Under the pieces are notes generated by a model, which had not been told where the DNA came from, did not search any database, and saw only the letters and a program-made list of their open reading frames with translations. Both the position numbers and the translations under genes were made by a program. 64,000 nucleotides of DNA from an uncultured Bacilli bacterium (lineage in GTDB: Bacteria; Bacillota_I; Bacilli_A; RF39; UBA660): contig CANRFG010000003.1 of the NCBI GenBank assembly GCA_947629815.1, positions 7,148 to 71,147 of the forward strand, written 5' to 3'. Below, piece by piece: positions 3,791 through 47,996 of the stretch (position 1 is the first letter of the stretch; the number at the start of each line of letters is the position of its first letter).

Positions 3791-5095
3791 ATGCAAAATT
3801 TAAATATAGAAAAAGTAGAACAAATATCAGATATAAAAAAAGAACCAATTTGGATGAAAAAGTTTAGAGTGAATGCATTTAAAACATTTGAAAAACTTGG
3901 AAATCCTAAGTTTGGACCAGAACTAAAAATTGATTTTGATATTATAAATTACTACAAAAAATTAGATGACGAAATACATAATAATTGGAATGATGTTCCA
4001 AAAGATATAAAAGATACATTTGATAAAATAGGACTTCCTGAAGCAGAAAAAAAATATTTATCAGGTGTACATGCCCAATATGAAAGTGAAGGCATATATA
4101 GTAATATGTTAAAAGAACTTGAAGAAAAAAATGTAATATTTTGTGATACTGATACAGCACTTAAAAAATATCCAAAATTATTTAAACAATATTTTAATAA
4201 TTTAGTTAAATATGATGAAAATAAATATACTGCTTTAAATTCAGCAGTATGGAGTGGAGGGACTTTTATTTATGTTCCACCACATACAACAATAGATAGA
4301 CCACTTCAAAGTTACTTTAGAATCAATTCTAAAAATATGGGACAATTTGAAAGAACAATTATAATAGTAGATGAATATAGTAGTCTACATTATATGGAAG
4401 GTTGTACCGCACCTACATATACATCAGATTCTTTACATGCTGCAGTAGTAGAAATATATGTTAAAAAAGGTGCGAAATGTAGATATACAACAATACAAAA
4501 TTGGTCTAATGATGTATATAATTTAGTAACGAAAAGAGCAATAGTAGAAGAAGATGGACTTATGGAGTGGATAGATGGTAATATTGGCTCTAAAATAAAT
4601 ATGAAATATCCAACTTGTATATTAAATGGAAATGGTGCGAAAGGAAACTGTATTTCAATTGCTGTTGCTACAAAAGGACAAATTCAAGATGCAGGTGCGA
4701 AAATGATACACTTATTTCCAAATACAACAAGTAATATAATATCAAAGTCTGTTGCTAGTAATGGTGGAGAAGCTACATATAGAGGAACAGTTAATATAAC
4801 AAAAAATGCTGTTAATTCCAAAAGCATAGTTAAATGTGATACTATTATTTTAGATGATAAGTCAAGAAGCGATACTATTCCTAAAAATAAAGTGGAAAAT
4901 GATAGTTCAACTCTAGAACATGAAGCAACAGTATCAAAAATAAGTAAAGAAAAACTATTTTATTTAATGAGTAGAGGAATAGAAGAAGAAAAAGCAAAAG
5001 AATTATTAATAATGGGATTTATAGATGAATTTAAAGAACAATTACCAATGGAATATGCTATAGAATTAAATGCATTATTAAAAAATTATTTTTAG
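3791..5095 (+). CDS. sufB: Fe-S cluster assembly protein SufB
   Basis: 434 aa with SufB-type conserved blocks: [53 protein letters not shown]. Confidence 0.8.
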
Positions 5096-8304: not shown

Positions 8305-8381
8305 GTTTCCGTAGCTCAGTAGGATAGAGCGAACGCCTCCTAAGCGTTAGGTTAGCAGTTCGATTCTGCTCGGGAACACCA
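8305..8381 (+). tRNA. tRNA-Arg (anticodon CCT)
   Basis: Cloverleaf by hand. Acceptor GTTTCCG/CGGGAAC. D-arm GCTCAGTAGGATAGAGC. Anticodon stem AACGC/GCGTT with loop CTCCTAA. T-arm AGCAG TTCGATT CTGCT. Encoded CCA present. Confidence 0.85.
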
Positions 8382-8790
8382 GATTGATACTAAACTTGGA
8401 AAATTCAAGTAAAAATAGAGAATGTACTTGATAAAAGTGCGTTTTTATGTTATTATGAATATGTCAAGGAAACTTGCATAAAATAAAAAAGGATACATTT
8501 GATTGAGAGAATCAGATGTTATCCCTTGTGGAATGCATCTGAAATCAACTATTGTTGAAATCAGATGTTTTTATTATTTAAATAGTAAGGTGATTACTAT
8601 AAAGAATAATAGTAGGATTACAATAAATTGAGAAAATTCTCTCTTTGTCATAAATACCACCACCTTTCTCTTATCTTTTGATAATTGAAAGGGAAAACAT
8701 CTGACATATTTCAAATGTATCCACTGATATTATACCAAACAAATGTTCTAAATTCAAGATATTTTAAATTATTTTATAAGAAAAAGCAAT
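8382..8790 (+). other. conserved noncoding module (copy A): promoter, 6-codon mini-ORF and long imperfect hairpin; homologous to 47252-47640
   Basis: Promoter TTGATA at 8428, 17-bp spacer, TATTAT at 8451. Mini-ORF atgtcaaggaaacttgcataa. Long-range inverted repeat 8491-8520 against 8694-8720. An anti-SD-like motif caccacctttctc. About 75% identity to the copy at 47252 over roughly 400 bp. Confidence 0.5.
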
Positions 8791-8978: not shown

Positions 8979-9581
8979 ATGAACGAAGAAAATTTTGATA
9001 AATGTGTGCAAGAAAAAATACTTAAACCATGTTGTAGCCCTTGTTATGTGTTAGGTCCAGCTGGACCAAGAGGTGCAACAGGTCCAACAGGCCCAATTGG
9101 ACCAACAGGACCTGCAGGTATACCAGGACCACAAGGAACACAAGGAGAAATAGGCCCAACAGGACCTGCAGCTGGACTTAATGCTTATGGAGGCCTTTAT
9201 TTATCTACTCCACAAACATTTCAAAGTCAACAACAACCTATTACTATTAACTTAGATACTCCTATGGAGGATTATTCAGTAACAGGAGGTACTAATGCTA
9301 TTCAAATAGTAGAAGGTGGAATATATGAAGTAACTTATACTCTTACTGCAACTTTAAATCAACCTGGTAATCTTGTAGTTGGAGTAAAAGAAAATGATAA
9401 AACTATACCTGGTTCTTCTGGAACAATTACATTAGATACTGCTGGAATGGGAGTAATAGCGAATAATATAATTGTTAGATTAACAGATAAATCTTCTATT
9501 TCACTTGCAATATTACCTGAAACAACAGTACAAAATGGTAATATTAATCAAGCATCTTTATCAGTTAAATTATTAGATTAG
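8979..9581 (+). CDS. collagen-like (G-x-y repeat) protein with BclA-type C-terminal globular domain (exosporium-like)
   Basis: [38 protein letters not shown] triple-helix repeats are followed by a roughly 130-aa beta-rich C-terminal domain. RBS GGGAG precedes the ATG at 8979. Confidence 0.7.
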
Positions 9582-33677: not shown

Positions 33678-35411
33678 GTAGAAATGAATAATTTCTATTC
33701 AGTTCTTTTTTTGCTTTGGAAAAGGAAATTTTTCGAAGTTTAAATTGTTTGGTGTATCCCAATAATTACCTTTTAATTTATTGCCATCTAAAGTAGAAAA
33801 ATATTTTCTTATGTTGGCACCTAAGCACATAAGCATAATCTCACAAGAAACTTTATTTAAACCTCGTCTTCTTATTCTATCATAATTCATATTATTTTTT
33901 ATTTGTCCAAATGCACCTTCTACTTGGATGCTTCTGTTTATTCTTATTTCTATTCCTCTTGGACTTTGTAAATTTTTTCTAGCTTCTTCTTTTAATAATT
34001 CATATTCTGGTACTAGTTCATATAATCTATAATCGTAGCTTTTATTTTTTAAGTTTTTCTTACAGACATAAGAATAATTACAATTGTTACAACCAACAAA
34101 TTTATAAAGTTTACTATTTTTATATCTTTGATGTCTAATACCATCAAATGATATTTCTTCTCCGATACAAGTATTTAAACACATAACTCCATCATTAAAA
34201 GTATAAAATAATTGGGGCCTTTTTCCATCAGCTTCACCACTCCATGTAGAATGTTTAACGTAATTTTTTATATTGTGATTTTTCATATATTGATAATTTT
34301 CATACATTCCATATCCTGAATCTGCACATTCATTTTTAGGATATTCTTCATAATATTTATAATATAGGTCATTCATTGGGATAAAAGTATAGAAATCATC
34401 TCGATTTTGAAATACTCCATACATTGTTATTAACCCACTTGATACCATTACTTGTATATTATATCCTGCATGAAAATCATGACTGCTTTTTGAATAATAA
34501 TCTTCCTTTAATACCATCGCAGTGGCATCTTTATCAGTTTTGTAATAAGAATTCCTATTTTCACCACATATTGTTTCTTTTTCTTCGTATTCAAGTAACT
34601 TGATTAAATATTGATAAGCTAATTTATAATTTCTTTGTTCTTTAGTTAATCGTTTACCTTTACCCGTGGGAATAGAATTAATATCTATATTTTCTCTTAC
34701 AACATACTCTTTTATTAGCTCATTTAACTCAAATGATTTTATTTTATTTTTTATTTCAATTCCCATTTTAAGTAATAGTTCTTTAATCTTAATATCTAAT
34801 TTTTTATGGTAAGTAGTTGGCTTCCATACAAATTTATATTTATTCGCATTTGCTTCTATTTTTGTTCCATCATTATATTGAATATCTATATTAACATTAA
34901 GATCTTCTATAATTGCTTTTGTAATCATAGTAAATATTTCATATTGATAAGGGACTATATATTTATTAATGCAATCCTTTATTGAACTGTCACTTGGTTG
35001 TTGTTGTTCCATTAAATAAATAACTCTTAAATCAAATTGACATAGATTTTCTATTTCTCGTAAACTACCTTTAAATTTTGAAAAACAATAAATAATAGTT
35101 GCAATTAAATTAAATGGATTGTATCCTTTTCTTCCAACGTCACTTTGAACGTTTTTTATTATCAATCCTATTCCTGAGTTATTCAAAATTTCAAGGAATT
35201 TATCAATTTTATCAAATTCCTCACAGCATTTCACTGAGGGGACTATGAAAATTGGTCTTTTTGTGTTAAAATATCCCATGTGATACATCTTCTTTCGTCA
35301 ATTAGATTGTATCACGAATTGGTCTTGAAGTCTTATGATTTCAGGACTTTTTATTTTTTGGAATAAATTAAAAAAGAACTGAATAGAAATTATTCATTTC
35401 TACTCAGCCCC
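33670..35411 (-). mobile_element. IS1182-family insertion sequence, copy 1 (1742 bp)
   Basis: Perfect roughly 36-bp terminal inverted repeats: GGGGCTGAGTAGAAATGAATAATTTCTATTCAGTTC at the left and its reverse complement at the right. No clear target-site duplication. The flanks ttaaaaa|IS|tttttaa look palindromic. Confidence 0.8.
33699..35288 (-). CDS. IS1182-family transposase (DUF772 N-terminal domain plus DDE domain)
   Basis: 529 aa. The block GRKGYNPFNLIATIIYCFSKFKGSLREIENLCQFDLRVIYL fits the DUF772 pattern. Identical to the ORF at 39048..40637. Confidence 0.75.
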   Translation of the reverse strand: MYHMGYFNTKRPIFIVPSVKCCEEFDKIDKFLEILNNSGIGLIIKNVQSDVGRKGYNPFNLIATIIYCFSKFKGSLREIENLCQFDLRVIYLMEQQQPSDSSIKDCINKYIVPYQYEIFTMITKAIIEDLNVNIDIQYNDGTKIEANANKYKFVWKPTTYHKKLDIKIKELLLKMGIEIKNKIKSFELNELIKEYVVRENIDINSIPTGKGKRLTKEQRNYKLAYQYLIKLLEYEEKETICGENRNSYYKTDKDATAMVLKEDYYSKSSHDFHAGYNIQVMVSSGLITMYGVFQNRDDFYTFIPMNDLYYKYYEEYPKNECADSGYGMYENYQYMKNHNIKNYVKHSTWSGEADGKRPQLFYTFNDGVMCLNTCIGEEISFDGIRHQRYKNSKLYKFVGCNNCNYSYVCKKNLKNKSYDYRLYELVPEYELLKEEARKNLQSPRGIEIRINRSIQVEGAFGQIKNNMNYDRIRRRGLNKVSCEIMLMCLGANIRKYFSTLDGNKLKGNYWDTPNNLNFEKFPFPKQKKN

Positions 35412-36559: not shown

Positions 36560-36646
36560 TAAGTTTGAATCATGATTTTAAAAGTAGTTATTGTATTTTT
36601 TTTAAAATATGATATACTATAGTAGTAATTTAATATTACTACTTAT

Positions 36647-36689
36647 GGACTGTTAGCTCAGTTGGTAGAGCAACTGACTCTTAATCAGT
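36647..36689 (+). other. 5' half of a second tRNA-Lys gene (acceptor, D-arm and anticodon stem-loop), truncated after the anticodon stem; attL-side core ACTGACTCTTAATCAGT at 36673-36689
   Basis: GGACTGTTAGCTCAGTTGGTAGAGCAACTGACTCTTAATCAGT is followed by non-tRNA sequence. Its matching 3' half lies at 47219-47251. Confidence 0.65.
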
Positions 36690-36716
36690 TGCTCGTGCTA
36701 AAAGGCACAAAAATAT

Positions 36717-36792
36717 GGACCGTTAGCTCAGTTGGTAGAGCAATCGACTCTTAATCGATGGGTCTAGGGTTCGAATCCCTAACGGTCCACCA
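36717..36792 (+). tRNA. tRNA-Lys (anticodon CTT), intact
   Basis: Acceptor GGACCGT/ACGGTCC. Anticodon stem ATCGA/TCGAT with loop CTCTTAA. T-arm TAGGG TTCGAAT CCCTA. CCA present. Confidence 0.85.
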
Positions 36793-36941
36793 TATTTGAT
36801 AAGTAAAATTCCTAGCAATTATAAGGGTTTGTTAGGAATTTTTATTTTTTGATTTTAAAAATTTTATGAAAAAAATGACATCAAAATTTGATGTAAAAAT
36901 GAAAAAAATTTTGTATAAATACAAATTTTAAAAAAATATAA

Positions 36942-37004
36942 ACTTATCACAAAGTATCATAATTTATCATAAGACGGCACCAATTACGGCACCCACACGG
37001 CACC
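36942..37004. repeat. three 10-bp iteron-like repeats (NTATCAYAA) followed by three CGGCACC direct repeats near the left end of the element
   Basis: cttatcacaa, agtatcataa, tttatcataa, then acggcacc..acggcaccc..acggcacc. Matching repeats occur at 45408-45447 (iterons, four units) and 47043-47062 (CGGCACC, two units). Confidence 0.6.
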
Positions 37005-37086
37005 TTTTAAAAAAATCTCTATCTAAAATTGAATATTTGATAAAACATTTAAAGGAGCAAATAAAAAAATTAGATAGGAGCAAAAA

Positions 37087-37347
37087 ATGAACGAACAAGA
37101 TTTTGAAAATTTAAAAGATTTAAGGTTTACTATTACCGAAGAAATGAAAGACACAATAATTGAAACTGCATTTACTAACCAAATACTTGACGAGTGCGAA
37201 CTATCGAAAAAAGATAGAAAACTTTTGAAAAAGCACGCCGAAAAATTAAAACGAAAATTTGCGTTAGATTTACAAGCACACAACCAAGTACAAGTACAAA
37301 TTATTCGTGCCTATATAAGTGGTAAAAAAGAGATAGACCAAAAATAA
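37087..37347 (+). CDS. hypothetical protein (element cargo)
   Basis: 86-aa ORF with a GGAG RBS. Charged and helical. Confidence 0.4.
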   Translation: MNEQDFENLKDLRFTITEEMKDTIIETAFTNQILDECELSKKDRKLLKKHAEKLKRKFALDLQAHNQVQVQIIRAYISGKKEIDQK

Positions 37348-37362
37348 AGTTTATCTCTTTTC

Positions 37363-38013
37363 TTATTCTAAATTTATACTATCAATAAATTCAATACTTT
37401 TCATTTCTTCATAAATTTGTTCTTGTGTCTTTCTTTTTTCTTCCATTATTCTTGCTTTCAATTCGCTACTACTTAATTGAGAGTGTTCGTTTGTATAATT
37501 AAATTTTGAATTTTCAAATAATTTAAAAATTTTAGTTGGTACTCGTTTATCGTGGGTGGCAATAAAAGGGTTTAATATAAAATTGTTGCCTCTACCTGTA
37601 ATCGCGGGTACTTTTTTTATAATTTCTTCATTTTCAAGTTGTTTAATTCCGTCCCTAAAAGATGTATCACTACATAAAGTTAAGGCTTGTATTTCCTTAC
37701 TATTCATAAACCCGTCAAAATGTTTATTTTTCATTTTTATAATAAAGCCACTATATGTACCCCAACCAAGAGAGGAAAGCATAACCATTAAAATATCGTA
37801 TGAACTTTTTGTTAAATTACATTGTGCTATCATACGAAAAGGCAAGTCCATTGACTTATTAAATTTTTTACCTTTGTTTATTTCTTTTGTCTTGCTTAAA
37901 TATTCTATTGTTTTAGCACTAATTATGTAAAACCTATCGTTTCTATTTAGATAAGTTGTTTCTCCTGTTTCCAAGTTGGCTAGAACTCTTGTATAATCTT
38001 CATAGTTTATCAC
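37363..38013 (-). CDS. RepL-like Firmicute plasmid replication protein
   Basis: C-terminal block KVPAITGRGNNFILNPFIATHDKR resembles RepL (..RKTGVLMLNPELLMRGDD..). GTG start with AGGGGGT RBS. Palindromic sites ACGAAAATTCGT x2 lie just upstream (38036-38079). Confidence 0.55.
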   Translation of the reverse strand: MINYEDYTRVLANLETGETTYLNRNDRFYIISAKTIEYLSKTKEINKGKKFNKSMDLPFRMIAQCNLTKSSYDILMVMLSSLGWGTYSGFIIKMKNKHFDGFMNSKEIQALTLCSDTSFRDGIKQLENEEIIKKVPAITGRGNNFILNPFIATHDKRVPTKIFKLFENSKFNYTNEHSQLSSSELKARIMEEKRKTQEQIYEEMKSIEFIDSINLE

Positions 38014-38160
38014 ATATCTTAACCCCCTATAAGAGCGAAAATTCGTGGTCGAAAAAGTAGTTTACCCACGAAAATTCGTACCCATTAAAAACTCAATTTT
38101 TCTTTTAAATAAAGGCTAAAAGAGATGTTTATTGCATTTCTTCTTTTATTGTTCTAGTAT

Positions 38161-38517
38161 TTAATCAATTTTACAATAATCTCTATTAGCATTGTAGCAA
38201 CAAGTAGGACAATTTCTTTCAAAGCCTTGATACTCTAAAGCCCTATAAAACTTTTCCCCAAATATACCTTGCCCTCGTGCAAGTTTTTGTATTTCTTCTT
38301 GTATAACTTGACGGACAATTTTTTCGATGTATAAGTCTTGCTCGTCCTTTTGTAGTGGGTAGGAAAAAGTCTTTTTTCTTTCTTCCTTTTCCTTACTTTC
38401 TTTTTCCCATTGTTCCATAAGTTTTAAGATGTCATATTCTATCGTTTGTTCGAAAACCTTTTCAATATCTTGCAAGTCGAAGATGTCCTCAAAACCTATC
38501 TTGTCAGTTTGTTTCAT
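38161..38517 (-). CDS. hypothetical protein with C-terminal Cys cluster (CPTCCYNANRDYC)
   Basis: 118-aa ORF with an acidic N-terminus. No motif recognised. Confidence 0.4.
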   Translation of the reverse strand: MKQTDKIGFEDIFDLQDIEKVFEQTIEYDILKLMEQWEKESKEKEERKKTFSYPLQKDEQDLYIEKIVRQVIQEEIQKLARGQGIFGEKFYRALEYQGFERNCPTCCYNANRDYCKID

Positions 38518-38585
38518 ATATAACCCTCCATATAGATTTTTTCTTTCATTGTCATTTTATAAAGTGTTGCTAGTCGTTGTTAAGA

Positions 38586-38750
38586 TTAGACTTTTTTATT
38601 TTCGATGTATTCTTTTAAAGTGCTTTCACTAACTAGATAACGATTAGCAACTCTAAAAGCCTCGAGTTTATGTTCTCGTATTAACTTTTGAATAGTCTTA
38701 ACATTAACCCCAAGAATACAACTTATTTCCTTTGTTGTGTAAAATTTCAT
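38586..38750 (-). CDS. excisionase/MerR-superfamily HTH DNA-binding protein (54 aa; not in the ORF track)
   Basis: Reverse-strand translation MKFYTTKEISCILGVNVKTIQKLIREHKLEAFRVANRYLVSESTLKEYIENKKV. The TKEISxxLGVSxxTIxxLIRExKL pattern is typical of Xis-family HTH proteins. Confidence 0.5.
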   Translation of the reverse strand: MKFYTTKEISCILGVNVKTIQKLIREHKLEAFRVANRYLVSESTLKEYIENKKV

Positions 38751-39018
38751 ATACACACACCTCCTTTAATCTAAAGAGTAGTGATTTAACTACCCCTTAC
38801 TTAAAAGAGAATAAATGCAACTAAAAATACACAAAACATACCTTACTTATCTAGTGCAAACAAAAGAGGCATTTATAAGCACATAAAAAGCCCCTTATAT
38901 TCGCATATAAAAGGCTTATAGCAAAGATTTACAAGCAAGCAATAAAAAGATACATCTAAAACCAAACATCTTGTATCGTGCAAGTATTCCAGCTTGAAAT
39001 CTATTGACAATATAAAAA

Positions 39019-40760
39019 GGGGCTGAGTAGAAATGAATAATTTCTATTCAGTTCTTTTTTTGCTTTGGAAAAGGAAATTTTTCGAAGTTTAAATTGTTTG
39101 GTGTATCCCAATAATTACCTTTTAATTTATTGCCATCTAAAGTAGAAAAATATTTTCTTATGTTGGCACCTAAGCACATAAGCATAATCTCACAAGAAAC
39201 TTTATTTAAACCTCGTCTTCTTATTCTATCATAATTCATATTATTTTTTATTTGTCCAAATGCACCTTCTACTTGGATGCTTCTGTTTATTCTTATTTCT
39301 ATTCCTCTTGGACTTTGTAAATTTTTTCTAGCTTCTTCTTTTAATAATTCATATTCTGGTACTAGTTCATATAATCTATAATCGTAGCTTTTATTTTTTA
39401 AGTTTTTCTTACAGACATAAGAATAATTACAATTGTTACAACCAACAAATTTATAAAGTTTACTATTTTTATATCTTTGATGTCTAATACCATCAAATGA
39501 TATTTCTTCTCCGATACAAGTATTTAAACACATAACTCCATCATTAAAAGTATAAAATAATTGGGGCCTTTTTCCATCAGCTTCACCACTCCATGTAGAA
39601 TGTTTAACGTAATTTTTTATATTGTGATTTTTCATATATTGATAATTTTCATACATTCCATATCCTGAATCTGCACATTCATTTTTAGGATATTCTTCAT
39701 AATATTTATAATATAGGTCATTCATTGGGATAAAAGTATAGAAATCATCTCGATTTTGAAATACTCCATACATTGTTATTAACCCACTTGATACCATTAC
39801 TTGTATATTATATCCTGCATGAAAATCATGACTGCTTTTTGAATAATAATCTTCCTTTAATACCATCGCAGTGGCATCTTTATCAGTTTTGTAATAAGAA
39901 TTCCTATTTTCACCACATATTGTTTCTTTTTCTTCGTATTCAAGTAACTTGATTAAATATTGATAAGCTAATTTATAATTTCTTTGTTCTTTAGTTAATC
40001 GTTTACCTTTACCCGTGGGAATAGAATTAATATCTATATTTTCTCTTACAACATACTCTTTTATTAGCTCATTTAACTCAAATGATTTTATTTTATTTTT
40101 TATTTCAATTCCCATTTTAAGTAATAGTTCTTTAATCTTAATATCTAATTTTTTATGGTAAGTAGTTGGCTTCCATACAAATTTATATTTATTCGCATTT
40201 GCTTCTATTTTTGTTCCATCATTATATTGAATATCTATATTAACATTAAGATCTTCTATAATTGCTTTTGTAATCATAGTAAATATTTCATATTGATAAG
40301 GGACTATATATTTATTAATGCAATCCTTTATTGAACTGTCACTTGGTTGTTGTTGTTCCATTAAATAAATAACTCTTAAATCAAATTGACATAGATTTTC
40401 TATTTCTCGTAAACTACCTTTAAATTTTGAAAAACAATAAATAATAGTTGCAATTAAATTAAATGGATTGTATCCTTTTCTTCCAACGTCACTTTGAACG
40501 TTTTTTATTATCAATCCTATTCCTGAGTTATTCAAAATTTCAAGGAATTTATCAATTTTATCAAATTCCTCACAGCATTTCACTGAGGGGACTATGAAAA
40601 TTGGTCTTTTTGTGTTAAAATATCCCATGTGATACATCTTCTTTCGTCAATTAGATTGTATCACGAATTGGTCTTGAAGTCTTATGATTTCAGGACTTTT
40701 TATTTTTTGGAATAAATTAAAAAAGAACTGAATAGAAATTATTCATTTCTACTCAGCCCC
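39019..40760 (-). mobile_element. IS1182-family insertion sequence, copy 2 (identical to copy 1, same orientation), nested inside the integrative element
   Basis: Same inverted repeats as copy 1 and an identical 529-aa transposase ORF at 39048..40637. Confidence 0.8.
39048..40637 (-). CDS. IS1182-family transposase (copy 2)
   Basis: Identical translation to the ORF at 33699..35288. Confidence 0.75.
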   Translation of the reverse strand: MYHMGYFNTKRPIFIVPSVKCCEEFDKIDKFLEILNNSGIGLIIKNVQSDVGRKGYNPFNLIATIIYCFSKFKGSLREIENLCQFDLRVIYLMEQQQPSDSSIKDCINKYIVPYQYEIFTMITKAIIEDLNVNIDIQYNDGTKIEANANKYKFVWKPTTYHKKLDIKIKELLLKMGIEIKNKIKSFELNELIKEYVVRENIDINSIPTGKGKRLTKEQRNYKLAYQYLIKLLEYEEKETICGENRNSYYKTDKDATAMVLKEDYYSKSSHDFHAGYNIQVMVSSGLITMYGVFQNRDDFYTFIPMNDLYYKYYEEYPKNECADSGYGMYENYQYMKNHNIKNYVKHSTWSGEADGKRPQLFYTFNDGVMCLNTCIGEEISFDGIRHQRYKNSKLYKFVGCNNCNYSYVCKKNLKNKSYDYRLYELVPEYELLKEEARKNLQSPRGIEIRINRSIQVEGAFGQIKNNMNYDRIRRRGLNKVSCEIMLMCLGANIRKYFSTLDGNKLKGNYWDTPNNLNFEKFPFPKQKKN

Positions 40761-40854
40761 TTAATTATTGCTATATATCGCTCGTACGAGGGGGTATAGT
40801 TTAGTAATTTGTACTTGACTTTTCAAAAAATCGGTCGCCACCTCGTATATTGAT

Positions 40855-41397
40855 TTAGTCAGTTCTATAATATTGTTTAAGGCTTCCGTCAGTATCGTCC
40901 CTCTCATATAGTTCGTCATAATCATTATTGTATTGAAAATGCTCGTGAAAATCAGTATCTTCTTCCATATACAAGAAAATATCATTATCCTCATTTGCAT
41001 AAACATCTATTTTTCCTTTGTAAGAGTATTTAAAATCGTCATTACCTTGATAAATAAAACCACTTGTTTTTTTAAATGTTTTGTTTTCAGAAAAAGTTAT
41101 AATATCATAACTTATGCCACCATTTGTTTTTGATGTTTTTCTATATTCCCAAGTCCCAACAATTTTATCAAGTAGTTTTTCCTCTTGTTTATGCTTTATA
41201 CTTTCCGTAAACAAAATAAATGATACTATGCCAACTATAAATACCGAAATAACACTAATAATCGGCACAATAATTTTAAAAGCCTTTGACTTTTCTTTTT
41301 TTGCTTTTTCTTTTTTATAAACAAAACCACAATGAGGACATCGCTTTGCACTATCACTTATTTCTTTGCCACACTCTTTACATTTAATTAGAGCCAT
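40855..41397 (-). CDS. zinc-ribbon domain membrane protein, paralog 3 (with C-terminal soluble domain)
   Basis: N-terminus MALIKCKECGKEISDSAKRCPHCG (CxxC...CxxC), one TM helix, then a roughly 110-aa extracytoplasmic domain. Confidence 0.55.
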   Translation of the reverse strand: MALIKCKECGKEISDSAKRCPHCGFVYKKEKAKKEKSKAFKIIVPIISVISVFIVGIVSFILFTESIKHKQEEKLLDKIVGTWEYRKTSKTNGGISYDIITFSENKTFKKTSGFIYQGNDDFKYSYKGKIDVYANEDNDIFLYMEEDTDFHEHFQYNNDYDELYERDDTDGSLKQYYRTD

Positions 41398-41839
41398 TTT
41401 TTTCGCTCCTTAAAACCATTAAATATAATAAAATATAAATTGTATAATTATTGATAAAATCCATCAATACTTTTAATATTCCATAGTATTTAAGAGTAAA
41501 ACCAAGTTGTAAAAAAATATATGTAATCATATTTATTGTCAAAACAATTCCTACTACGATTTTTAAAATTGGCAATTTCATTTTAGCCATAAAGAAAATT
41601 AACCATAAAATTGCAATGTTAGTAATATTATAAATTGTTTGTATTGTTAAAGGGAAAATACTAGGTATCATACAAAGGGTATAAAGGCTCAATAAAATTA
41701 TTATTCCTATATCTATATTGCTAATTTTTCCTTTTTTCTTTTCAATTCTTTTTGTTTTTATTTCAATACCACAATGAGGGCAAGTTTTTAATGTATCACT
41801 CATTTCTTTGCCACACTCGGTACACTTAATTAAAGCCAT
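41384..41839 (-). CDS. zinc-ribbon domain membrane protein, paralog 2 (4 TM)
   Basis: N-terminus MALIKCTECGKEMSDTLKTCPHCG, followed by a polytopic membrane region. Overlaps paralog 3 by 14 nt. Confidence 0.55.
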   Translation of the reverse strand: MALIKCTECGKEMSDTLKTCPHCGIEIKTKRIEKKKGKISNIDIGIIILLSLYTLCMIPSIFPLTIQTIYNITNIAILWLIFFMAKMKLPILKIVVGIVLTINMITYIFLQLGFTLKYYGILKVLMDFINNYTIYILLYLMVLRSEKNGSN

Positions 41840-41854
41840 TTTTTGCTCCTTTCT

Positions 41855-41941
41855 TTATTTCTTCTTATTTAGAATAATAGCAACTATAATACCAACAACT
41901 ATTGCTACTACTACACAAATTAAAATTGGTAAAAACATCAT
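41855..41941 (-). CDS. 28-aa hydrophobic peptide ORF with strong RBS (MMFLPILICVVVAIVVGIIVAIILNKKK)
   Basis: AAGGAG RBS sits 7 nt upstream of the ATG on the minus strand. A single TM helix with a KKK tail. Lies between zinc-ribbon paralogs 1 and 2. Confidence 0.3.
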   Translation of the reverse strand: MMFLPILICVVVAIVVGIIVAIILNKKK

Positions 41942-41956
41942 ATAAAATCACTCTCC

Positions 41957-42361
41957 TTAATATGTTGAATATATAATTATCCACAAAAAGCCTATGAATA
42001 AAAAGACACTACTTATTATGACGGAAATAAGCCCCATTGTTTTAGCACTATTTTGTTTTCCTTTATTTGAATTTAAAACAATGATACCTAAAACTAAACT
42101 AACTATTGATGTGATACCAAAGAACGAACATATAAGAGAGGCTAAAGCCATATTGTAATTTTCGCCTCTTTCGTCAGTTGTCTTATTGTTGCTATTAGTT
42201 TGAAAAGCATACCCACAATTAGGACACATTGTTGCTTTACGACTTAATTGTTTATCACACTCAGGGCAAAACATTATATTGTTTTCAACACCACAATTAG
42301 GGCATATTTTTGCGTGGTCGCTCATTTCTTTTCCACACTCATTGCACTTAATCATTGCCAT
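41957..42361 (-). CDS. double zinc-ribbon membrane protein, paralog 1 (DUF4190-like C-terminus)
   Basis: N-terminus MAMIKCNECGKEMSDHAKICPNCG, then a second ribbon CPECD...CPNCG, then two TM helices. Confidence 0.55.
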   Translation of the reverse strand: MAMIKCNECGKEMSDHAKICPNCGVENNIMFCPECDKQLSRKATMCPNCGYAFQTNSNNKTTDERGENYNMALASLICSFFGITSIVSLVLGIIVLNSNKGKQNSAKTMGLISVIISSVFLFIGFLWIIIYSTY

Positions 42362-42472
42362 ACATAAAACCTCCTTTCTTCCACATCTCTATTATAACAC
42401 ATTTTATCTACGAACGATAGATAAAGAAAGCCGATTTTTCTTGAGATAATTATATAGAGAGGTGGTGAGGCT

Positions 42473-42724
42473 ATGACGGACAACAAAAAAGACGAAAACT
42501 ATATCTATTATATTATCGGTCAAAATTTGAAAAGACTACGAAAAGAAAAAGGCTTTACCCAAGAAAAACTTGCCGAGGCGAGCAATTATGCTTTAAGTTT
42601 TATTGGCAATTTAGAAAGTGATAAAGTGTTTCAAACGGCTTCCGTTGGTAGCCTTTACCATATAGCCAAGATTTTAAAAATCGATATAAGAGAGTTATTC
42701 GTCCCAATAGACGAAAATAAGTAG
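42473..42724 (+). CDS. XRE-family HTH regulator divergent from the zinc-ribbon operon
   Basis: Reads IGQNLKRLRKEKGFTQEKLAEASNY. Confidence 0.65.
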   Translation: MTDNKKDENYIYYIIGQNLKRLRKEKGFTQEKLAEASNYALSFIGNLESDKVFQTASVGSLYHIAKILKIDIRELFVPIDENK

Positions 42725-42849
42725 ATGTGTAGTACATCTTTTTTTATTGCCAAAAAGGGCTTTTATTTGCCTACTATTTAAGTGATAAAGTTAGAGGGGT
42801 ATATTTTATAATACTTTTATTTAAAGCAACAAAAAAGGCTTAAAACACA

Positions 42850-43593
42850 TTATTTAGTGCTAGCCTTTAAGTATTGCTCGATGTCAAACTTATCAATGTT
42901 TTTGACATCTATTTTTTTATAGTTATTTATTAGAAAATCTTTGACTATTCCAACAAACTCATTTTTTGCATTTTCATTATCATTAAATAAAAAGTTCCAG
43001 TCGTTTGTGTATTCTTCGTCATATAGGTATTTGAATATAGAAAAGCCAATACTTTCTTTCGTTTCGTGATAGATATATTTTTTTACAAGTTGCATTGTGT
43101 TATTTGTCATAAGACTTGTTTCTTTTTCTTTGCTTTCAGTATCATAGATTATTATTTTATCTTTGCTTAATTCTTCGAGCATAGGTACAATATATTTGTT
43201 TATATAATCATTTACTTTTGTATTATAAGTAAATTGTTTTATAACACTTTCTCTTATTCTATTTGCTATATCTTTTTTAAGTTTAACATCTCCCTTATCT
43301 AAAAAGCCAATTTCTTCGTCCTTTAACATATTAGGGGCTTTGTTTTCTTCGTTTACTTGTGCGAATAATATTGTCATATCTACTGCCGAAGATGTCATAT
43401 TTTGCGAGTAGATTATTTCTTCTTTTTTATTTGTTGTTCCTATTAAATCATAAATATTTATTTTAGGCATTATATAAGTATTAACAAAATCATTGGCTTT
43501 ATTTATAAGTGTTTGTTCTTCACTTGTGTTTTTTCGATTCTTTGCTCTTGTTTGATTTTCTTCGTTTAATTTTTTAATAACATTTATTGCCAT
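42850..43593 (-). CDS. hypothetical protein (element cargo; second gene of a two-gene operon)
   Basis: 247 aa. No recognisable motif. Its start abuts the stop of the upstream 372-aa ORF. Confidence 0.45.
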   Translation of the reverse strand: MAINVIKKLNEENQTRAKNRKNTSEEQTLINKANDFVNTYIMPKINIYDLIGTTNKKEEIIYSQNMTSSAVDMTILFAQVNEENKAPNMLKDEEIGFLDKGDVKLKKDIANRIRESVIKQFTYNTKVNDYINKYIVPMLEELSKDKIIIYDTESKEKETSLMTNNTMQLVKKYIYHETKESIGFSIFKYLYDEEYTNDWNFLFNDNENAKNEFVGIVKDFLINNYKKIDVKNIDKFDIEQYLKASTK

Positions 43594-43594
43594 A

Positions 43595-44713
43595 CTAACT
43601 CAACCTTTCGTATAGATTTTTATTTCTTTCAATAATTGCTTGTACTTTATCAAAAGCCTTTTTAAAATTGGCTTGCTTTTGTTCTTCCGTTTCAGTTTGT
43701 AAAACTACCAATTCATAAGCCTCTTTTAAATCAATAACTATTTTATTGATAAGCATATTACTTGCTATTGCTTTTATGTTTCCGTCAATTATATCTTTCA
43801 TTGTAGTTATAAAGTAGTAATAATCAAACTTGTTTATGTAGTCGGTCATTTCAATATTGTATGCTATTTCTTTAGGTAGTTGTTCCGTTAGTTTTTGACT
43901 AACTAAAATAATTAAATCTAAAAACTTTTCGCTATTCTTTTTGAATAAGTCATTATCTTTAATATCAAGATGTAATAAAGAAAGATAGGCTTTGTAGTAT
44001 TCTTCAGGACTAGATTTTTCGCTTAAATCAAACTCAATAGGCTCTTTATCATATAAAGTTTTTACGATGCCATTATTTGCATAGGCTACCAAGTCGTAAA
44101 TAAAGCCTATATATTGCATTTCTTCCTTTGTTAAGTCAATTCCATAGGTATTAACAAAATCACTCTTATATTGGCTTTTAAAAGCCTTATAATCGGTATA
44201 TAAATTATTAAATTTACTTATAAATATTTTGTAGTTGCTATCTTTGTTTTTTTCGTATTCAATACCACCTTTTACAACACTATCAAAACCGATATTTTCT
44301 AGTTGTTGCATTTCTTCTTCAATTTCAATTTTAAAAGTATCTATATATTTATCGTTATAAGATAATTTTTCATACCAAGCAATAAACTTGTTATATAAAA
44401 TTCTCGTGTTGCTATCGATTAAAGCCTTTAATGTCCTTACACTATATTTGTTTCGGTCGTCGTCCTCGCTTTTATAAATTATCTTTTCAAGTATTATTTG
44501 TATTTCGTCTTGTTTTTCCTTTTTGCTTTTATTACTATCGGCAAAAAGTATGTTATTTATTATTATAAGAGTTTTATATACATCTAGCATTATATCGTAT
44601 TGCTCTTTGTATTCTTTTCTAAAATCAGTTATGCCGAGTTCTCGTTCTATTGTATTTATATACTTGCTATTGCGAAAAATATCGTCATTTAAAGTATTAT
44701 GTCTTTTTCCCAT
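43595..44713 (-). CDS. hypothetical protein (element cargo; first gene of a two-gene operon)
   Basis: 372 aa, all-helical composition. No recognisable motif. Confidence 0.45.
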   Translation of the reverse strand: MGKRHNTLNDDIFRNSKYINTIERELGITDFRKEYKEQYDIMLDVYKTLIIINNILFADSNKSKKEKQDEIQIILEKIIYKSEDDDRNKYSVRTLKALIDSNTRILYNKFIAWYEKLSYNDKYIDTFKIEIEEEMQQLENIGFDSVVKGGIEYEKNKDSNYKIFISKFNNLYTDYKAFKSQYKSDFVNTYGIDLTKEEMQYIGFIYDLVAYANNGIVKTLYDKEPIEFDLSEKSSPEEYYKAYLSLLHLDIKDNDLFKKNSEKFLDLIILVSQKLTEQLPKEIAYNIEMTDYINKFDYYYFITTMKDIIDGNIKAIASNMLINKIVIDLKEAYELVVLQTETEEQKQANFKKAFDKVQAIIERNKNLYERLS

Positions 44714-44850
44714 AAAAAGCCCTCCATACTTAAATTATACCACGAAAAAAGGCTATCTCATATAAGATAACCTTTGTTTTAGTTTAGATTAAGTTTAATT
44801 TAGTTTGTTTATAGTTTAAATTAGTTTTTCAATAGTTTAATTTAGTCTAA

Positions 44851-45111
44851 TTAACTCAAAATAGAGTTTAATTCAACAAAGTTGTCATATTCTTTTTTTA
44901 TAGCCTTGTATAAACTAGCAACTCTATTATCAATACTATTTTTAGAGCCATTTTTTTGTTGTTGATTTGCTACATATTTAGCAAATTTATTCAAAGTTGT
45001 TTTTGATACCTCTCTTTCAGTATATTTGTTAAGCATAACCTCAACCATAGCACCTTTAATATCACTTAAATCTAAAACCTCTTTAACATTTTTATCTAAC
45101 ATCTTAATCAC
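44851..45111 (-). CDS. hypothetical small protein
   Basis: 86-aa ORF in the element. Confidence 0.35.
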   Translation of the reverse strand: MIKMLDKNVKEVLDLSDIKGAMVEVMLNKYTEREVSKTTLNKFAKYVANQQQKNGSKNSIDNRVASLYKAIKKEYDNFVELNSILS

Positions 45112-45407
45112 TTTCCTTTCTTTGTGGGGCTACCACTTTTTCGTTAGATTTTCACAAACTTTTCAACCGGTTTCTTCGTTTGTGATTACATCTTACCAAG
45201 AAAATACCTAAAAAAAAGTATCAAGAAACAAGTAAAAGTGTACCATTTCAAAAATACTAATTGCCTTTATTTACGGGCTTTTCTTAATTTTTAAGACCGA
45301 TTTTTCGAATAAATAATCAAAAAATAAATAAAAATTTTTTGATATTTTTTTATTCTTCTAGCCCCGTATTTTTTCTTATTTATATATATAGGCTGTTGGA
45401 CGAAAAA

Positions 45408-45447
45408 AGTATCATAAACTATCACAAAGTATCACAAACTATCATAA
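45408..45447. repeat. four tandem 10-bp iteron-like repeats (agtatcataa actatcacaa agtatcacaa actatcataa) next to an AT-rich stretch
   Basis: Read directly. Same unit as the repeats at 36943-36972. An AT-rich tract lies upstream at 45312-45350. Confidence 0.6.
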
Positions 45448-45639
45448 AATTTTACAATAAATTTTGTATTTTCAACTCGATAAATCGGTTAAGTATTTTT
45501 ATCTAGCCCTTATAATATGGGCTTTTTTAATGTTTTAAATTAGTACAAAGTTATTATTTTTTAGTACGAGATTAAAGGCTTTCTTAATTGCTAAACTCTA
45601 ATTGTTCGAACGGAAAATCAATGAATTGGAGGTTTAACA

Positions 45640-45837
45640 ATGACAAAAGAAATTTGTAATTTAAAAGATTTATCAAACTATTTAAAAATATCTATTTCGG
45701 AAATTAGAAAGTTAGTACGAGAAAGAAAAATACCACATTTTAGAATCGGCAATCGTATTATGTTTGATTTAAAAAGTATAAATACTTGGCTTGAAAATTT
45801 ACAAGAAAAAGAAAGCAAAACATCTCTATTTTACTAG
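45640..45837 (+). CDS. xis: excisionase / AlpA-family HTH protein
   Basis: 65 aa with the HTH LSNYLKISISEIRKLVRERKIPHFRIGNRIMF. Lies immediately upstream of the integrase gene. Confidence 0.6.
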   Translation: MTKEICNLKDLSNYLKISISEIRKLVRERKIPHFRIGNRIMFDLKSINTWLENLQEKESKTSLFY

Positions 45838-45909
45838 GAAAAATAAGAAAAATATGATATAATTATAAGTAGATAGAGATTGTTTTATCAAATGTTAGGA
45901 GGAAAGAAA

Positions 45910-47025
45910 ATGATAAAACAACTATCAAAAAATAAATATAAAATAATAGCAGAAATTGGCTACACTATGGACGGCAAAAGAAAAAGAAAAACGGAAATTT
46001 TTGAGGGTACTAAAAAGCAAGCCGAAACAAGAGAATTTGAAATTAAGCAACAATATTCTAAAAAAGGCTTTATTACTGATAGTAAAAATTTAACCTTTGA
46101 AGATTATGGAAAAATTTTCATTAAGCATTATTGCGAAGGAAATATTGGTGCTAAAACTATGGACGGCTATCTATCAATGCTAGAAAAAATCAATTCGTAT
46201 CTAGGAAATTGGCAATTAAAAAGTATCGAAACATTTACTTTAACACAACTATATAAGAAATTAAAAAAAGGTACTAGAAAAGATGTTGTTACCAATAACA
46301 CTTTATTGCATTATTACAATCTTATCAATTTAATGTTTACACAAGCAGTTAAGTGGAATTTTATTGATAGCAACCCAAATTCAAATATTCCTAGACCAAA
46401 GAAAGAAAAACATCTAGCCGAGTGTTACGATATCGACCAAATACATACATTATTAAATGGCTTAACAAACGAGTGCTTAAAATATCAAGCCTTAATTATT
46501 CTAGCCATTGACTCGGGAGCAAGGAGGAGCGAGATATTGGCTCTTACTTGGAAAGATATTGATTTTGATACCAAAGTATTAACTATCAATAAATCACTAG
46601 ATGTTATTAGAGGCGAGTTTATAGAAAAAGCAACAAAAAATGATACATCAACAAGAAAAATGGTATTAACTGATACCACTATAAATGTATTAAAAGCCTA
46701 TCGTGAAGAATTAAAAACATCTAATACTTGGAAAGAAACAAACAAATTATTTCTAGCAAAAGACGGAAAACCTATGTACCCAACAACTTGTGGCAAAATT
46801 TTTCAAAAAGTAGCCGTTAAAAATGGACTACCTAAAATTAACTTTCACTCATTAAGACATAGTTCGGCAAGTTTACAAATTGCTTTAGGTGTTCACACAA
46901 AATTGATACAAGAAAGAATGGGGCATTCTTCTATGGCAGTTACAACAAGTATTTACTCACATATTTTTCAAGCCAATAGGACGGAGGTTGCTAACAAGTT
47001 AAATGGTGCTTTATCACTCAATTAG
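45910..47025 (+). CDS. int: site-specific tyrosine recombinase (phage-type integrase)
   Basis: C-terminal catalytic region ARRSEILAL...HSLRHSSASL...HSSMAVTTSIYSH (R..H..R/H..Y). AGGAGG RBS at 45897 precedes the ATG at 45910. Confidence 0.9.
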   Translation: MIKQLSKNKYKIIAEIGYTMDGKRKRKTEIFEGTKKQAETREFEIKQQYSKKGFITDSKNLTFEDYGKIFIKHYCEGNIGAKTMDGYLSMLEKINSYLGNWQLKSIETFTLTQLYKKLKKGTRKDVVTNNTLLHYYNLINLMFTQAVKWNFIDSNPNSNIPRPKKEKHLAECYDIDQIHTLLNGLTNECLKYQALIILAIDSGARRSEILALTWKDIDFDTKVLTINKSLDVIRGEFIEKATKNDTSTRKMVLTDTTINVLKAYREELKTSNTWKETNKLFLAKDGKPMYPTTCGKIFQKVAVKNGLPKINFHSLRHSSASLQIALGVHTKLIQERMGHSSMAVTTSIYSHIFQANRTEVANKLNGALSLN

Positions 47026-47201
47026 ACAACATTTTTAAAATTTCGGCACCTTTTCGGCACCCATTATCAAAAATAGCCTATTGTATAACCAATAAAAAAA
47101 TGCTATAATATATATGACAAATCCCAAAAACCCCTATAAAATAAGGGAATAATTGGTAGTATGTCTTATCATTAAATTGGTGTTGTCGTTGTATATAGCC
47201 C

Positions 47202-47251
47202 ACTGACTCTTAATCAGTGGGTCTAGGGTTCGAATCCCTAACAGTCCACCA
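47202..47251 (+). other. attR: 17-bp core plus the 3' half of the split tRNA-Lys (variable loop, T-arm, acceptor ACAGTCC, CCA)
   Basis: cactgactcttaatcagtgggtctagggttcgaatccctaacagtccacca. The 54-bp region is an imperfect direct repeat (2 mismatches) of 36746-36798. Confidence 0.65.
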
Positions 47252-47700
47252 TATTTGATACTAAACTTGGAAAATTTCTGGGTATTAAGTAAAACGACTT
47301 GTCAAAAAGTCGTTTTTGTGATATGATGAATATGTCAAGGGAACTTGAATAAAATAAAAAAGGAATACCTAATTTTGATGAGTTAGGTACTATCCAAATC
47401 TTAGATTAGTACCGACTTATATAGTTGGTACCATTTTTATTAGTATGATTAAAATCACAATAATAAGGAGTATTATGATAGTGCAAAGATATTTCTCTGA
47501 TTTTCTCATAACTTCACCTCCTTTCACTTTAAAAAGTAAAGGAGAATAGTACCTAAAATAATTAAGTATTCCTCTGACATTATATCAAACATTTGTTCTT
47601 GATACAAGAGATTTTATATTAAATCAGAATAATAAAAACAACTTGTCAAAAAGTCGTTTTTATTATTAATATGCCAAGTAAATTTGCATTAAATAAAAAT
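47252..47700 (+). other. conserved noncoding module (copy B) plus a third copy of its promoter/mini-ORF segment
   Basis: Promoter TTGTCA at 47299, 17-bp spacer, TATGAT at 47322. Mini-ORF atgtcaagggaacttgaataa. Long inverted repeat 47377-47406 against 47548-47572. The motif cacctcctttc (identical to the 16S 3' end). A third promoter/mini-ORF copy at 47640-47700. Confidence 0.5.
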
Positions 47701-47996
47701 GAATAGTTAATATTGAAGTGTTGAGTGTGCCATAAAATTGGTTAAAATAATTTATTTAGATGATTTTTTATTTAAAAACAAAAATAATAATATTAATAGA
47801 AAGATAAGAGTGGGTACAATTAAAAGATTAATATCTTTCTCATATGATAAACTTCGATATGTATGATGATAAGGTTTTAGATTATTATGAAATTGAAGAA
47901 TTATATTTAAACAAAGAAAAAGATGACTTTGGAATATAATTCTTTATTCAAAATATTAAAAAGTATGATATAATAATTAATAGAGGAGGCCTTATT

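Follow-up and report, generated by a model that had tools for sequence, protein, structure and literature searches.

A probable type I toxin-antitoxin module family, recurrently placed behind tRNA genes, in uncultured gut Bacilli

In Bacillus subtilis, the type I toxin-antitoxin (TA) pairs bsrG/SR4, bsrE/SR5, and txpA/RatA each combine a small hydrophobic peptide gene with an antisense RNA of ~100 nucleotides (nt); the two genes are convergent and overlap at their 3′ ends—the layout of Gram-positive type I systems (PMC8594479)—while the Shine-Dalgarno sequence (SD) of the toxin is sequestered in mRNA structure and the loci lie in horizontally acquired DNA (PMC8594479, PMC3834814, and PMC6562991). 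In hok/Sok of Escherichia coli and aapA/IsoA of Helicobacter pylori, the full-length toxin mRNA is closed by a long-distance interaction between its 5′ and 3′ ends, and multiple paralogous loci per chromosome carry module-specific antisense RNAs (PMC6733600). Convergent transcripts and a small membrane toxin are also found in par (fst/RNA II) of Enterococcus faecalis, in low-GC Firmicutes hosts, and the type I systems of Clostridioides difficile, an AT-rich gut Firmicute, lie in mobile or variable DNA that they have been proposed to stabilize (PMC7699646). In this study, we analyzed an element of ~400 bp that shares these traits and is present twice in a 64,000-nt stretch (here, the window) of the genome of an uncultured Bacilli bacterium (GenBank assembly GCA_947629815.1, contig CANRFG010000003.1). 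We consider it likely that this module, with its two convergent transcripts, forms a unit of the type I TA kind and belongs to a previously undescribed family.

The modules differ from each of these systems. Unlike the B. subtilis loci, to which they have no sequence or covariance-model similarity, they encode shorter peptides (25 to 30 residues), their mRNA is predicted to be closed by a long 5′-3′ helix, the antisense promoter is probably embedded in a tRNA terminator hairpin, and they stand behind tRNA genes, not inside prophages. In hok/Sok and aapA/IsoA, which belong to Gram-negative hosts and are unrelated in sequence, the overlap with the antisense RNA is in the 5′ part of the mRNA and activation requires that the 3′ end be trimmed, whereas the module antisense RNA lies across the 3′ part, which contains the strand pairing with the 5′ end. 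One bidirectional terminator serves both par RNAs, which interact by way of 5′ direct repeats that lie outside their overlap (PMC8594479); each module RNA has a terminator of its own, and the pairing of the small RNA with the 5′ untranslated region of the peptide mRNA, sought beyond the overlap in the manner of Fst or SprA1, was not clearly better than in shuffles, so this reading was dropped. Nor did the peptides match the Fst_toxin or Ldr models of Pfam, even at E ≤ 10. The C. difficile systems are sited in prophages and near CRISPR arrays; the modules match no Rfam family, are not on phages in the collections searched, and are tied to tRNA 3′ ends. Our literature search found no description of this module family, no link between type I loci and tRNA genes, and nothing relevant on type I TA systems in Erysipelotrichia or Mollicutes.

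As the initial annotation of this DNA had recognized, copy A of the module (8382-8790) directly follows tRNA-Arg(CCT), and copy B (47252-47640) follows a tRNA-Lys 3′ fragment at the right repeat of a genomic island. That annotation described the module as noncoding. Both copies, however, hold an SD and an ATG open reading frame (ORF) of 25 or 30 residues on the minus strand, and this overlooked opposite-strand peptide gene reorganizes every part that had been listed. The parts of the two copies are as follows.

8421-8446, no strand assigned: terminator-like hairpin plus T-run of copy A, seen in the sequence, with the small-RNA −35 element in the loop and upper stem
8428-8456, plus strand: small-RNA promoter of copy A, TTGATA-17-TGtTATTAT (promoter scan)
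8462-8577, plus strand: antisense small RNA of copy A, ~115 nt, candidate antitoxin (fold, covariation, covariance model 95.4 bits), with a GNRA hairpin at 8465-8476, an A-rich linker, hairpin 1 at 8491-8524, and a terminator at 8536-8567 plus U-run
8480-8722, minus strand: predicted peptide mRNA of copy A, ~243 nt, ends inferred
8574-8651, minus strand: peptide ORF of copy A, MTKREFSQFIVILLLFFIVITLLFK, 25 residues plus stop, candidate toxin (ORF and SD scan; family coding signature)
8656-8667, minus strand: SD of the copy A ORF, AAAGGTGGTGGT; the strand reads AAAGGTGGTGG, then MTKREFSQFIVILLLFFIVITLLFK (8651 down to 8574)
8729-8757, minus strand: peptide-gene promoter of copy A, TTGAAT-17-TGgTATAAT (promoter scan)
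47291-47316: terminator-like hairpin of copy B (47291-47300/47307-47316), overlapping the small-RNA promoter
47299-47327, plus strand: small-RNA promoter of copy B, TTGTCA-17-TGaTATGAT (promoter scan)
47333-47441, plus strand: antisense small RNA of copy B (covariance model 103.9 bits), with a 5′ hairpin at 47336-47347, hairpin 1 at 47362-47395, and a terminator at 47409-47431 plus U-run
47350-47572, minus strand: predicted peptide mRNA of copy B, with 5′-3′ closure (fold)
47417-47509, minus strand: peptide ORF of copy B, MRKSEKYLCTIIILLIIVILIILIKMVPTI, 30 residues plus stop; its last codons overlap the small RNA
47515-47522, minus strand: SD of the copy B ORF, AGGAGGTG
47579-47607, minus strand: peptide-gene promoter of copy B, TTGTAT-17-TGaTATAAT, read from the sequence, the −35 element being under the scanner threshold

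The two copies are less alike than the ~75% identity over ~400 bp first reported. Their alignment gave 56.6% across 8382-8790: the initial 113 nt are 76% identical, the 221 nt of the middle segment 42.5%, and a 3′ block of 50 nt 74%; the middle segment has its architecture in common and not its sequence. They are nonetheless truly related, since a 33-nt block (ATGTCAAGGRAACTTGMATAAAATAAAAAAGGA) and a 22-nt block (TTGATACTAAACTTGGAAAATT) each have exactly two occurrences in the window and none in shuffles. The covariance model derived from the small-RNA alignment found only copy B (103.9 bits), copy A (95.4 bits), and a weak third match (33.7 bits) in the window.

Relatives were gathered by exact matches to a 25-nt motif at the small-RNA 5′ end, with one genome per species scanned, and all family counts given here are among the matches listed. 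This yielded at least 120 stretches holding at least 131 modules, in ~101 assemblies by accession prefix. The carriers are uncultured Bacilli, very rich in AT, from the gut of rabbit, mouse, goat, chicken, and human; the labels of these metagenome-assembled genomes (MAGs) are mostly Bacilli, Tenericutes, Mollicutes, or Erysipelotrichaceae, with a few Clostridia and Firmicutes and one Muribaculaceae. Several loci hold tandem arrays, with modules 350 to 485 nt apart. In the first 60 loci, the covariance model also found at least 13 further modules without the exact 25-nt anchor (in L006, L010, L023, L025, L038, L039, L059, and L060), and therefore the anchored set understates both the size of the family and the variability of its 5′ motif.

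An opposite-strand ORF with SD, ATG, and a hydrophobic run is present in 99 of the 120 full-length modules when lengths of 15 to 60 residues are admitted. In all but two of these 99 the ORF starts 171 to 210 nt from the motif; most of the peptides have 23 to 31 residues, and at least five peptide subfamilies occur among the relatives. The second codon position is the least variable in all five peptide classes (0.02 to 0.10), the third is the most variable in four of them, and synonymous outnumber non-synonymous single-base codon differences in three (530:183, 317:148, and 1179:767), a coding signature suggesting that the ORF behaves as a translated gene. A −35/−10 pair for this gene was found where expected in 85 of 120 modules. 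The peptide gene also gives a new reading to two motifs of the initial annotation. The sequence likened to the 16S rRNA 3′ end is indeed there, although it is the reverse complement of the SD of the minus-strand ORF, and the conserved 3′ flank is likewise present but corresponds to the promoter of that ORF (in copy B as read from the sequence).

The inverted repeats noted earlier were recovered in both copies (8479-8502/8711-8734 and 8512-8527/8689-8704 in copy A; 47349-47374/47560-47585 and 47383-47393/47546-47556 in copy B). According to the predicted folds, this long-range inverted repeat is the closure of the 5′ end of the peptide mRNA onto its 3′ end: in copy A, the fold and the inverted repeats pair a 5′ arm (8688-8722) with the 3′ region (8479-8527), and the terminator of the mRNA is the complement of small-RNA hairpin 1 plus a U-run. 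The folds reach −77.8 kcal/mol in copy A (z = −7.97 versus shuffles) and −66.8 kcal/mol in copy B (z = −6.67). The SD is base paired in the predicted minimum-free-energy folds of both copies, with an upstream CUCCUUU as its partner in copy B. Across the family, the duplex between 5′ arm and 3′ region averages −34.0 kcal/mol for cognate and −21.6 kcal/mol for non-cognate combinations, and the matrix of 5′-3′ pairing between hairpin classes is diagonal, that is, the pairing is subfamily specific. Given both the closure and the paired SD, little translation is to be expected from the full-length peptide mRNA.

On the plus strand, the promoter scan bore out the σA-like promoters of both copies, and a hairpin plus U-run follows ~75 to 80 nt past the predicted start in each. 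The promoter and terminator so spaced point to a terminated RNA of ~110 nt and therefore not to a leader. A −10 element for this RNA was found in 109 of 120 modules and is TG extended in 105. The fold of the small RNA is more stable than that of shuffles (z = −5.45 in copy A and −4.6 in copy B), and an alignment of 106 small RNAs gave three helices with compensatory changes in 13 of 19 pairs, or 13 of 15 in the two variable helices. In this alignment, 98.9% of the cells are paired, against 22 to 40% when the partners are slid, 324 cells are compensatory, and none of 500 shuffles reached the score, which upholds the earlier proposal of a functional RNA whose structure is kept while its sequence drifts. 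In addition, 242 cells are G-U pairs on the plus strand that would be A-C on the other, and thus the hairpins appear to be selected in the plus-strand RNA. The two transcripts are convergent and overlap over 92 to 100 nt at the 3′ end of the peptide mRNA, with a predicted duplex of −145 to −160 kcal/mol.

The initial annotation had favored a cis-regulatory leader, in which translation of a 6-codon mini-ORF controls the downstream hairpin by attenuation. The mini-ORF start does hold an NTG codon in 115 of 127 modules, which we treat as a by-product of conservation around the transcription start site. It has no SD, its start coincides with the predicted start of transcription, and its two variable sites are non-synonymous yet lie in or beside the loop of a hairpin whose GNRA tetraloop is preserved (GAAA and GGAA in the window copies, and these as well as GUGA and GUAA in modules that the model found without the motif). 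We rejected the mini-ORF as a coding element; its sequence would instead form the GNRA hairpin CAAG-GNAA-CTTG. Moreover, the RNA ends at its own terminator, and no same-strand gene comes next within the unit: in the window, a minus-strand promoter follows copy A and a decayed module follows copy B. Attenuation by the mini-ORF has, in our judgment, close to no chance of being the explanation.

Three features of type I systems were found in silico: a gene for a small (<70 residues), hydrophobic peptide of transmembrane type with an SD and start of its own, a gene for a complementary antisense RNA, and a predicted mRNA structure that would limit translation. In such a type I unit, a minus-strand σ70-type promoter would drive an mRNA of ~225 to 245 nt for a single-helix membrane peptide of 25 to 30 residues, the candidate toxin, and the 5′ end of this mRNA would pair with its own 3′ end over ~30 bp, keeping the SD paired. 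A TG-extended plus-strand promoter would in turn produce the small RNA of ~110 nt, made up of the GNRA hairpin and, after an A-rich linker, an internal hairpin and an intrinsic terminator. Being fully complementary to the last 92 to 100 nt of the peptide mRNA, the small RNA is expected to form a long duplex with it, leading to decay of the mRNA, to its being kept closed, or to both; the GNRA hairpin presumably protects the 5′ end of the small RNA. The transcript ends, the toxicity and its neutralization, and the involvement of a nuclease are what we infer for this system. The family further contains tandem arrays and decayed copies, as do known type I families.

Several observations weigh against a type I assignment. 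(i) It is drawn from architecture alone. (ii) Peptides of six types had no meaningful match in Pfam or NCBIfam and belong to no toxin family there, they fall short of most Gram-positive type I toxins in length, and the charged C-terminal tail is missing from some subfamilies. (iii) No ORF passes the filter in 21 of the 120 modules, and synonymous and non-synonymous differences are about equal in two of the five peptide classes. (iv) Rfam, searched at the gathering threshold and at E ≤ 10, gave no antitoxin family; only the tRNA passes, and the weak matches are noise (GibS, 19.5 bits where 115 are needed). (v) The first 31 nt of the small RNA are nearly invariant, beyond what an antisense model needs, although this invariance is partly one of ascertainment, as only exact matches were retrieved and the modules found by the model show variants. 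(vi) All the relatives retrieved are gut MAGs.

The second of these points would also fit a unit of the same anatomy in which a cis-antisense RNA adjusts the expression of a harmless small membrane protein that serves neither addiction nor stasis, as the peptides resemble no toxin family and the polar tail that type I toxins typically have at the C terminus is missing in some subfamilies. Multiple diverged paralogs within a genome, tandem arrays, decayed copies, and a location in variable DNA are, however, hallmarks of type I TA systems and not of housekeeping small proteins (Fozo 2010, PMC2887945), as are a locked mRNA and a dedicated antisense RNA, and we regard a harmless protein as unlikely. 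The fifth point bears on another reading, in which the plus-strand RNA is the main product and acts in trans, with the 5′ hairpin and the A-rich stretch as seed or protein-binding site and the ORF as a secondary feature. The 5′ 31 nt are far better conserved than the rest across subfamilies that differ in hairpins and peptides, the hairpin keeps its GNRA loops in modules found without the motif, and the 5′ segment lies beyond the terminator of the peptide mRNA, so that antisense pairing does not depend on it. On the other hand, the A-rich stretch is the complement of the U-tract of the mRNA terminator, which explains part of the conservation, the peptide ORF is under coding constraint, the 5′-3′ pairing of the mRNA covaries with the small-RNA hairpin, and no trans target is known. 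A trans-acting RNA as the main product is thus very unlikely in our view, and a type I unit remains the reading that we prefer.

The setting of the modules is described by the following features of the window.

8305-8381, plus strand: tRNA-Arg(CCT) (ARAGORN; Rfam 66.3 bits); module A begins at the very next base
8382-8412, plus strand: tRNA trailer of copy A, GATTGATAnnAAAC..., with a small hairpin, ACTTG/CAAGT, at 8394-8410; generic to the terminal tRNAs of the lineage
47205-47260, plus strand: right direct repeat of the tRNA-Lys island, comprising the 3′ part of tRNA-Lys and ~10 nt of trailer; the other repeat lies at 36746-36801
47625-47880, plus strand: third module, in tandem and decayed (alignment to another subfamily; covariance model 33.7 bits, E = 0.0016)

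An intact tRNA-Lys(CTT) lies at 36717-36792 (ARAGORN and Rfam), and the 56-nt direct repeat (36746-36801/47205-47260) flanks a 10.5-kb insert with a tyrosine integrase at 45880-47025. The island being bounded by these repeats, copy B follows the native 3′ part of tRNA-Lys and is therefore outside the island. The third, partial copy that the initial annotation had reported was supported by both alignment and covariance model; it runs from 47625 to ~47880, and we regard it as a decayed tandem copy because its −10 element, terminator hairpin, and SD are damaged and its ORF is shortened to MRKILIF* (7 codons). As for the remaining content of the island (36746-47260), the integrase is beside the right repeat, and there are two zinc-ribbon proteins and several ORFs without a Pfam match. 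A truncated tRNA-Lys-like copy (36644-36709) lies just upstream of the intact tRNA-Lys gene. Two transposase ORFs of the DDE type, each of 529 residues with identical Pfam scores (PF13751/PF01609), are located at 33699-35288 and 39048-40637, both on the minus strand; one is within the island and the other just outside it, which points to an insertion sequence with at least two copies.

Placement behind a tRNA recurs among the relatives. In the 127 modules with enough upstream sequence, a same-strand tRNA ends 57 to 141 nt (mostly 83 to 90) before the motif in 45 cases, with 14 anticodon types, and an opposite-strand tRNA never does. A further 15 modules follow a "CACCA + trailer" remnant in which no tRNA was called, 8 follow another module, and 59 are in none of these three contexts. 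The trailer has the consensus (G/T)AT(T/A)GATA-NN-AAACTCG..., followed by a hairpin and T-run with the −35 element in the loop. This trailer is not confined to the module; it is also found, with a full terminator behind it, at many terminal tRNAs that lack one. A terminator-like hairpin (ΔG ≤ −6) is present in 37 of the 45 tRNA-adjacent modules compared to 12 of the 59 in other contexts, and for this reason the hairpin is probably the terminator of the tRNA; its stem sequence varies between loci while the pairing is kept, as judged by eye and uncounted. This probable tRNA terminator hairpin carries the −35 element of the small RNA. At the same position in three loci without a module (L019, L066, and L072, with tRNA-Thr or tRNA-Leu trailers), another conserved sequence, TTTGAnnTATGATAnAAT...TAGATTnAAATTG, comes after the terminator and may be another small transcription unit.

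The initial annotation had offered as an alternative the shared attachment arm of a family of tRNA-targeting elements. In a strict form of this idea, the module would be merely the attachment-proximal terminal arm of one family of islands or prophages that integrate at tRNAs, without any function as an RNA. Part of this idea holds, in that a generic trailer of 10 to 30 nt follows the CCA end and the island direct repeat extends 10 nt into it; the rest of the module is not an attachment arm. In favor of such an arm, the module begins exactly at the tRNA 3′ end in the 45 tRNA-adjacent cases, and synteny with the closest relatives ends exactly at 8382: the closest metagenomic relatives (L121-L126, from human gut, 76 to 91% protein identity) remain colinear with window positions 3791 up to that point, keep DUF3048, the HD gene, and tRNA-Arg(CCT), and then continue into unrelated DNA without a module. 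In L006 and L117, repeats that resemble tRNA ends also lie on both sides of one or two modules. Against it, a tblastn search with the tyrosine integrase of the window across all 120 loci at E = 10 returned only noise (other recombinase families were unscreened), and no further tRNA-Arg or tRNA-Lys attachment repeat is present in the window. A pattern scan of IMG/VR gave no exact match to the motif, and blastn of copy A gave none in phage and plasmid collections; the module is thus without a match in the phage, plasmid, and viral collections searched. The 59 modules outside the three contexts speak against an arm as well, and an arm cannot account for RNA covariation with strand-specific G-U pairs or for a coding ORF. 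We hold this alternative to be extremely unlikely. As the sole explanation, the attachment arm is already contradicted; copy B also lies outside the island repeats.

Several sequences near the modules deserve separate mention. The repeats in L006 (6950-7010 and 7780-7830) and L117 (3690-3730) are copies of a 31-nt element, AAGTTGTnG...GGGCACCA or, with its variable position, AAGTTGTnG...(C/T)TTAGGGCACCA, which has two subtypes and is also found in ~20 other loci; its last part resembles a tRNA 3′ end and leads into the usual trailer, yet it lies outside any tRNA and could be the right end of small integrase-less cassettes. A second motif, TGACAATTTAG...GCATATTGACAA or, in full, TGACAATTTAG(A)AAACACACTTGCATATTGACAA-n-CAATATGC, resembles a promoter or operator with two palindromes and occurs at 34 sites in L001-L120 (for example in L029, L035, L095, L111, and L118). 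It stands directly upstream of unrelated small enzyme genes that, by appearance only, are of the GNAT, metallo-beta-lactamase fold, methyltransferase, MazG-like, and TatD types; in 24 cases it is 303 to 328 nt past the small-RNA motif, just beyond the peptide-gene promoter, and it is absent from copy A of the window. Downstream of copy A, the window has genes for a BclA-like collagen protein (8979-9581), for a Fic protein, and for an acyltransferase.

Between the tRNA and the module, L037 and L021 have other cassettes, one of which reads as a PhD/YoeB pair. This pair, a type II TA system by its appearance (5800-6345 in L037), is located between tRNA-Arg(TCT) with its terminator and a unit of CACCA, trailer, and type I module; two kinds of TA system are therefore stacked behind one tRNA. 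The tRNA 3′ flank is most likely a hot spot for integration and variable DNA in these genomes, and the modules are most likely small selfish residents of such tRNA-linked variable regions, settling and persisting there. We also put forward, as a doubtful but conceivable idea, that the link to tRNA genes is mechanistic. On one hand, the module could be an integrase-less selfish cassette of ~450 bp that is mobilized in trans, homes to the CCA-trailer junction of many different tRNA genes, and then keeps hold of this hot spot. On the other hand, an antitoxin promoter within the tRNA terminator could couple the antitoxin to tRNA transcription or read-through, in which case release of the toxin would follow a shutdown of stable-RNA synthesis. 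Both ideas are compatible with the 45 of 127 modules at a fixed distance behind 14 tRNA types, the 15 behind remnants, the bracketed modules of L117 and L006, and the tRNA-Arg locus that related species have without a module.

The family would add a large and covariation-rich set to the systems of this kind, its more than 130 modules, from ~100 uncultured gut Bacilli, falling into at least five peptide subfamilies. Gene callers appear to miss the peptides, since none of 10 variants looked up exactly in a collection of 15 billion proteins was present. The family constitutes a clean natural experiment on 5′-3′ mRNA locking in the Gram-positive 3′-overlap layout. Its unusual part is the recurrent placement exactly behind tRNA genes, with a terminator hairpin that holds the −35 element of the antisense promoter. 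Should the link to tRNA genes prove mechanistic, it would be relevant to the colonization and stabilization of tRNA-linked variable regions by small selfish modules.

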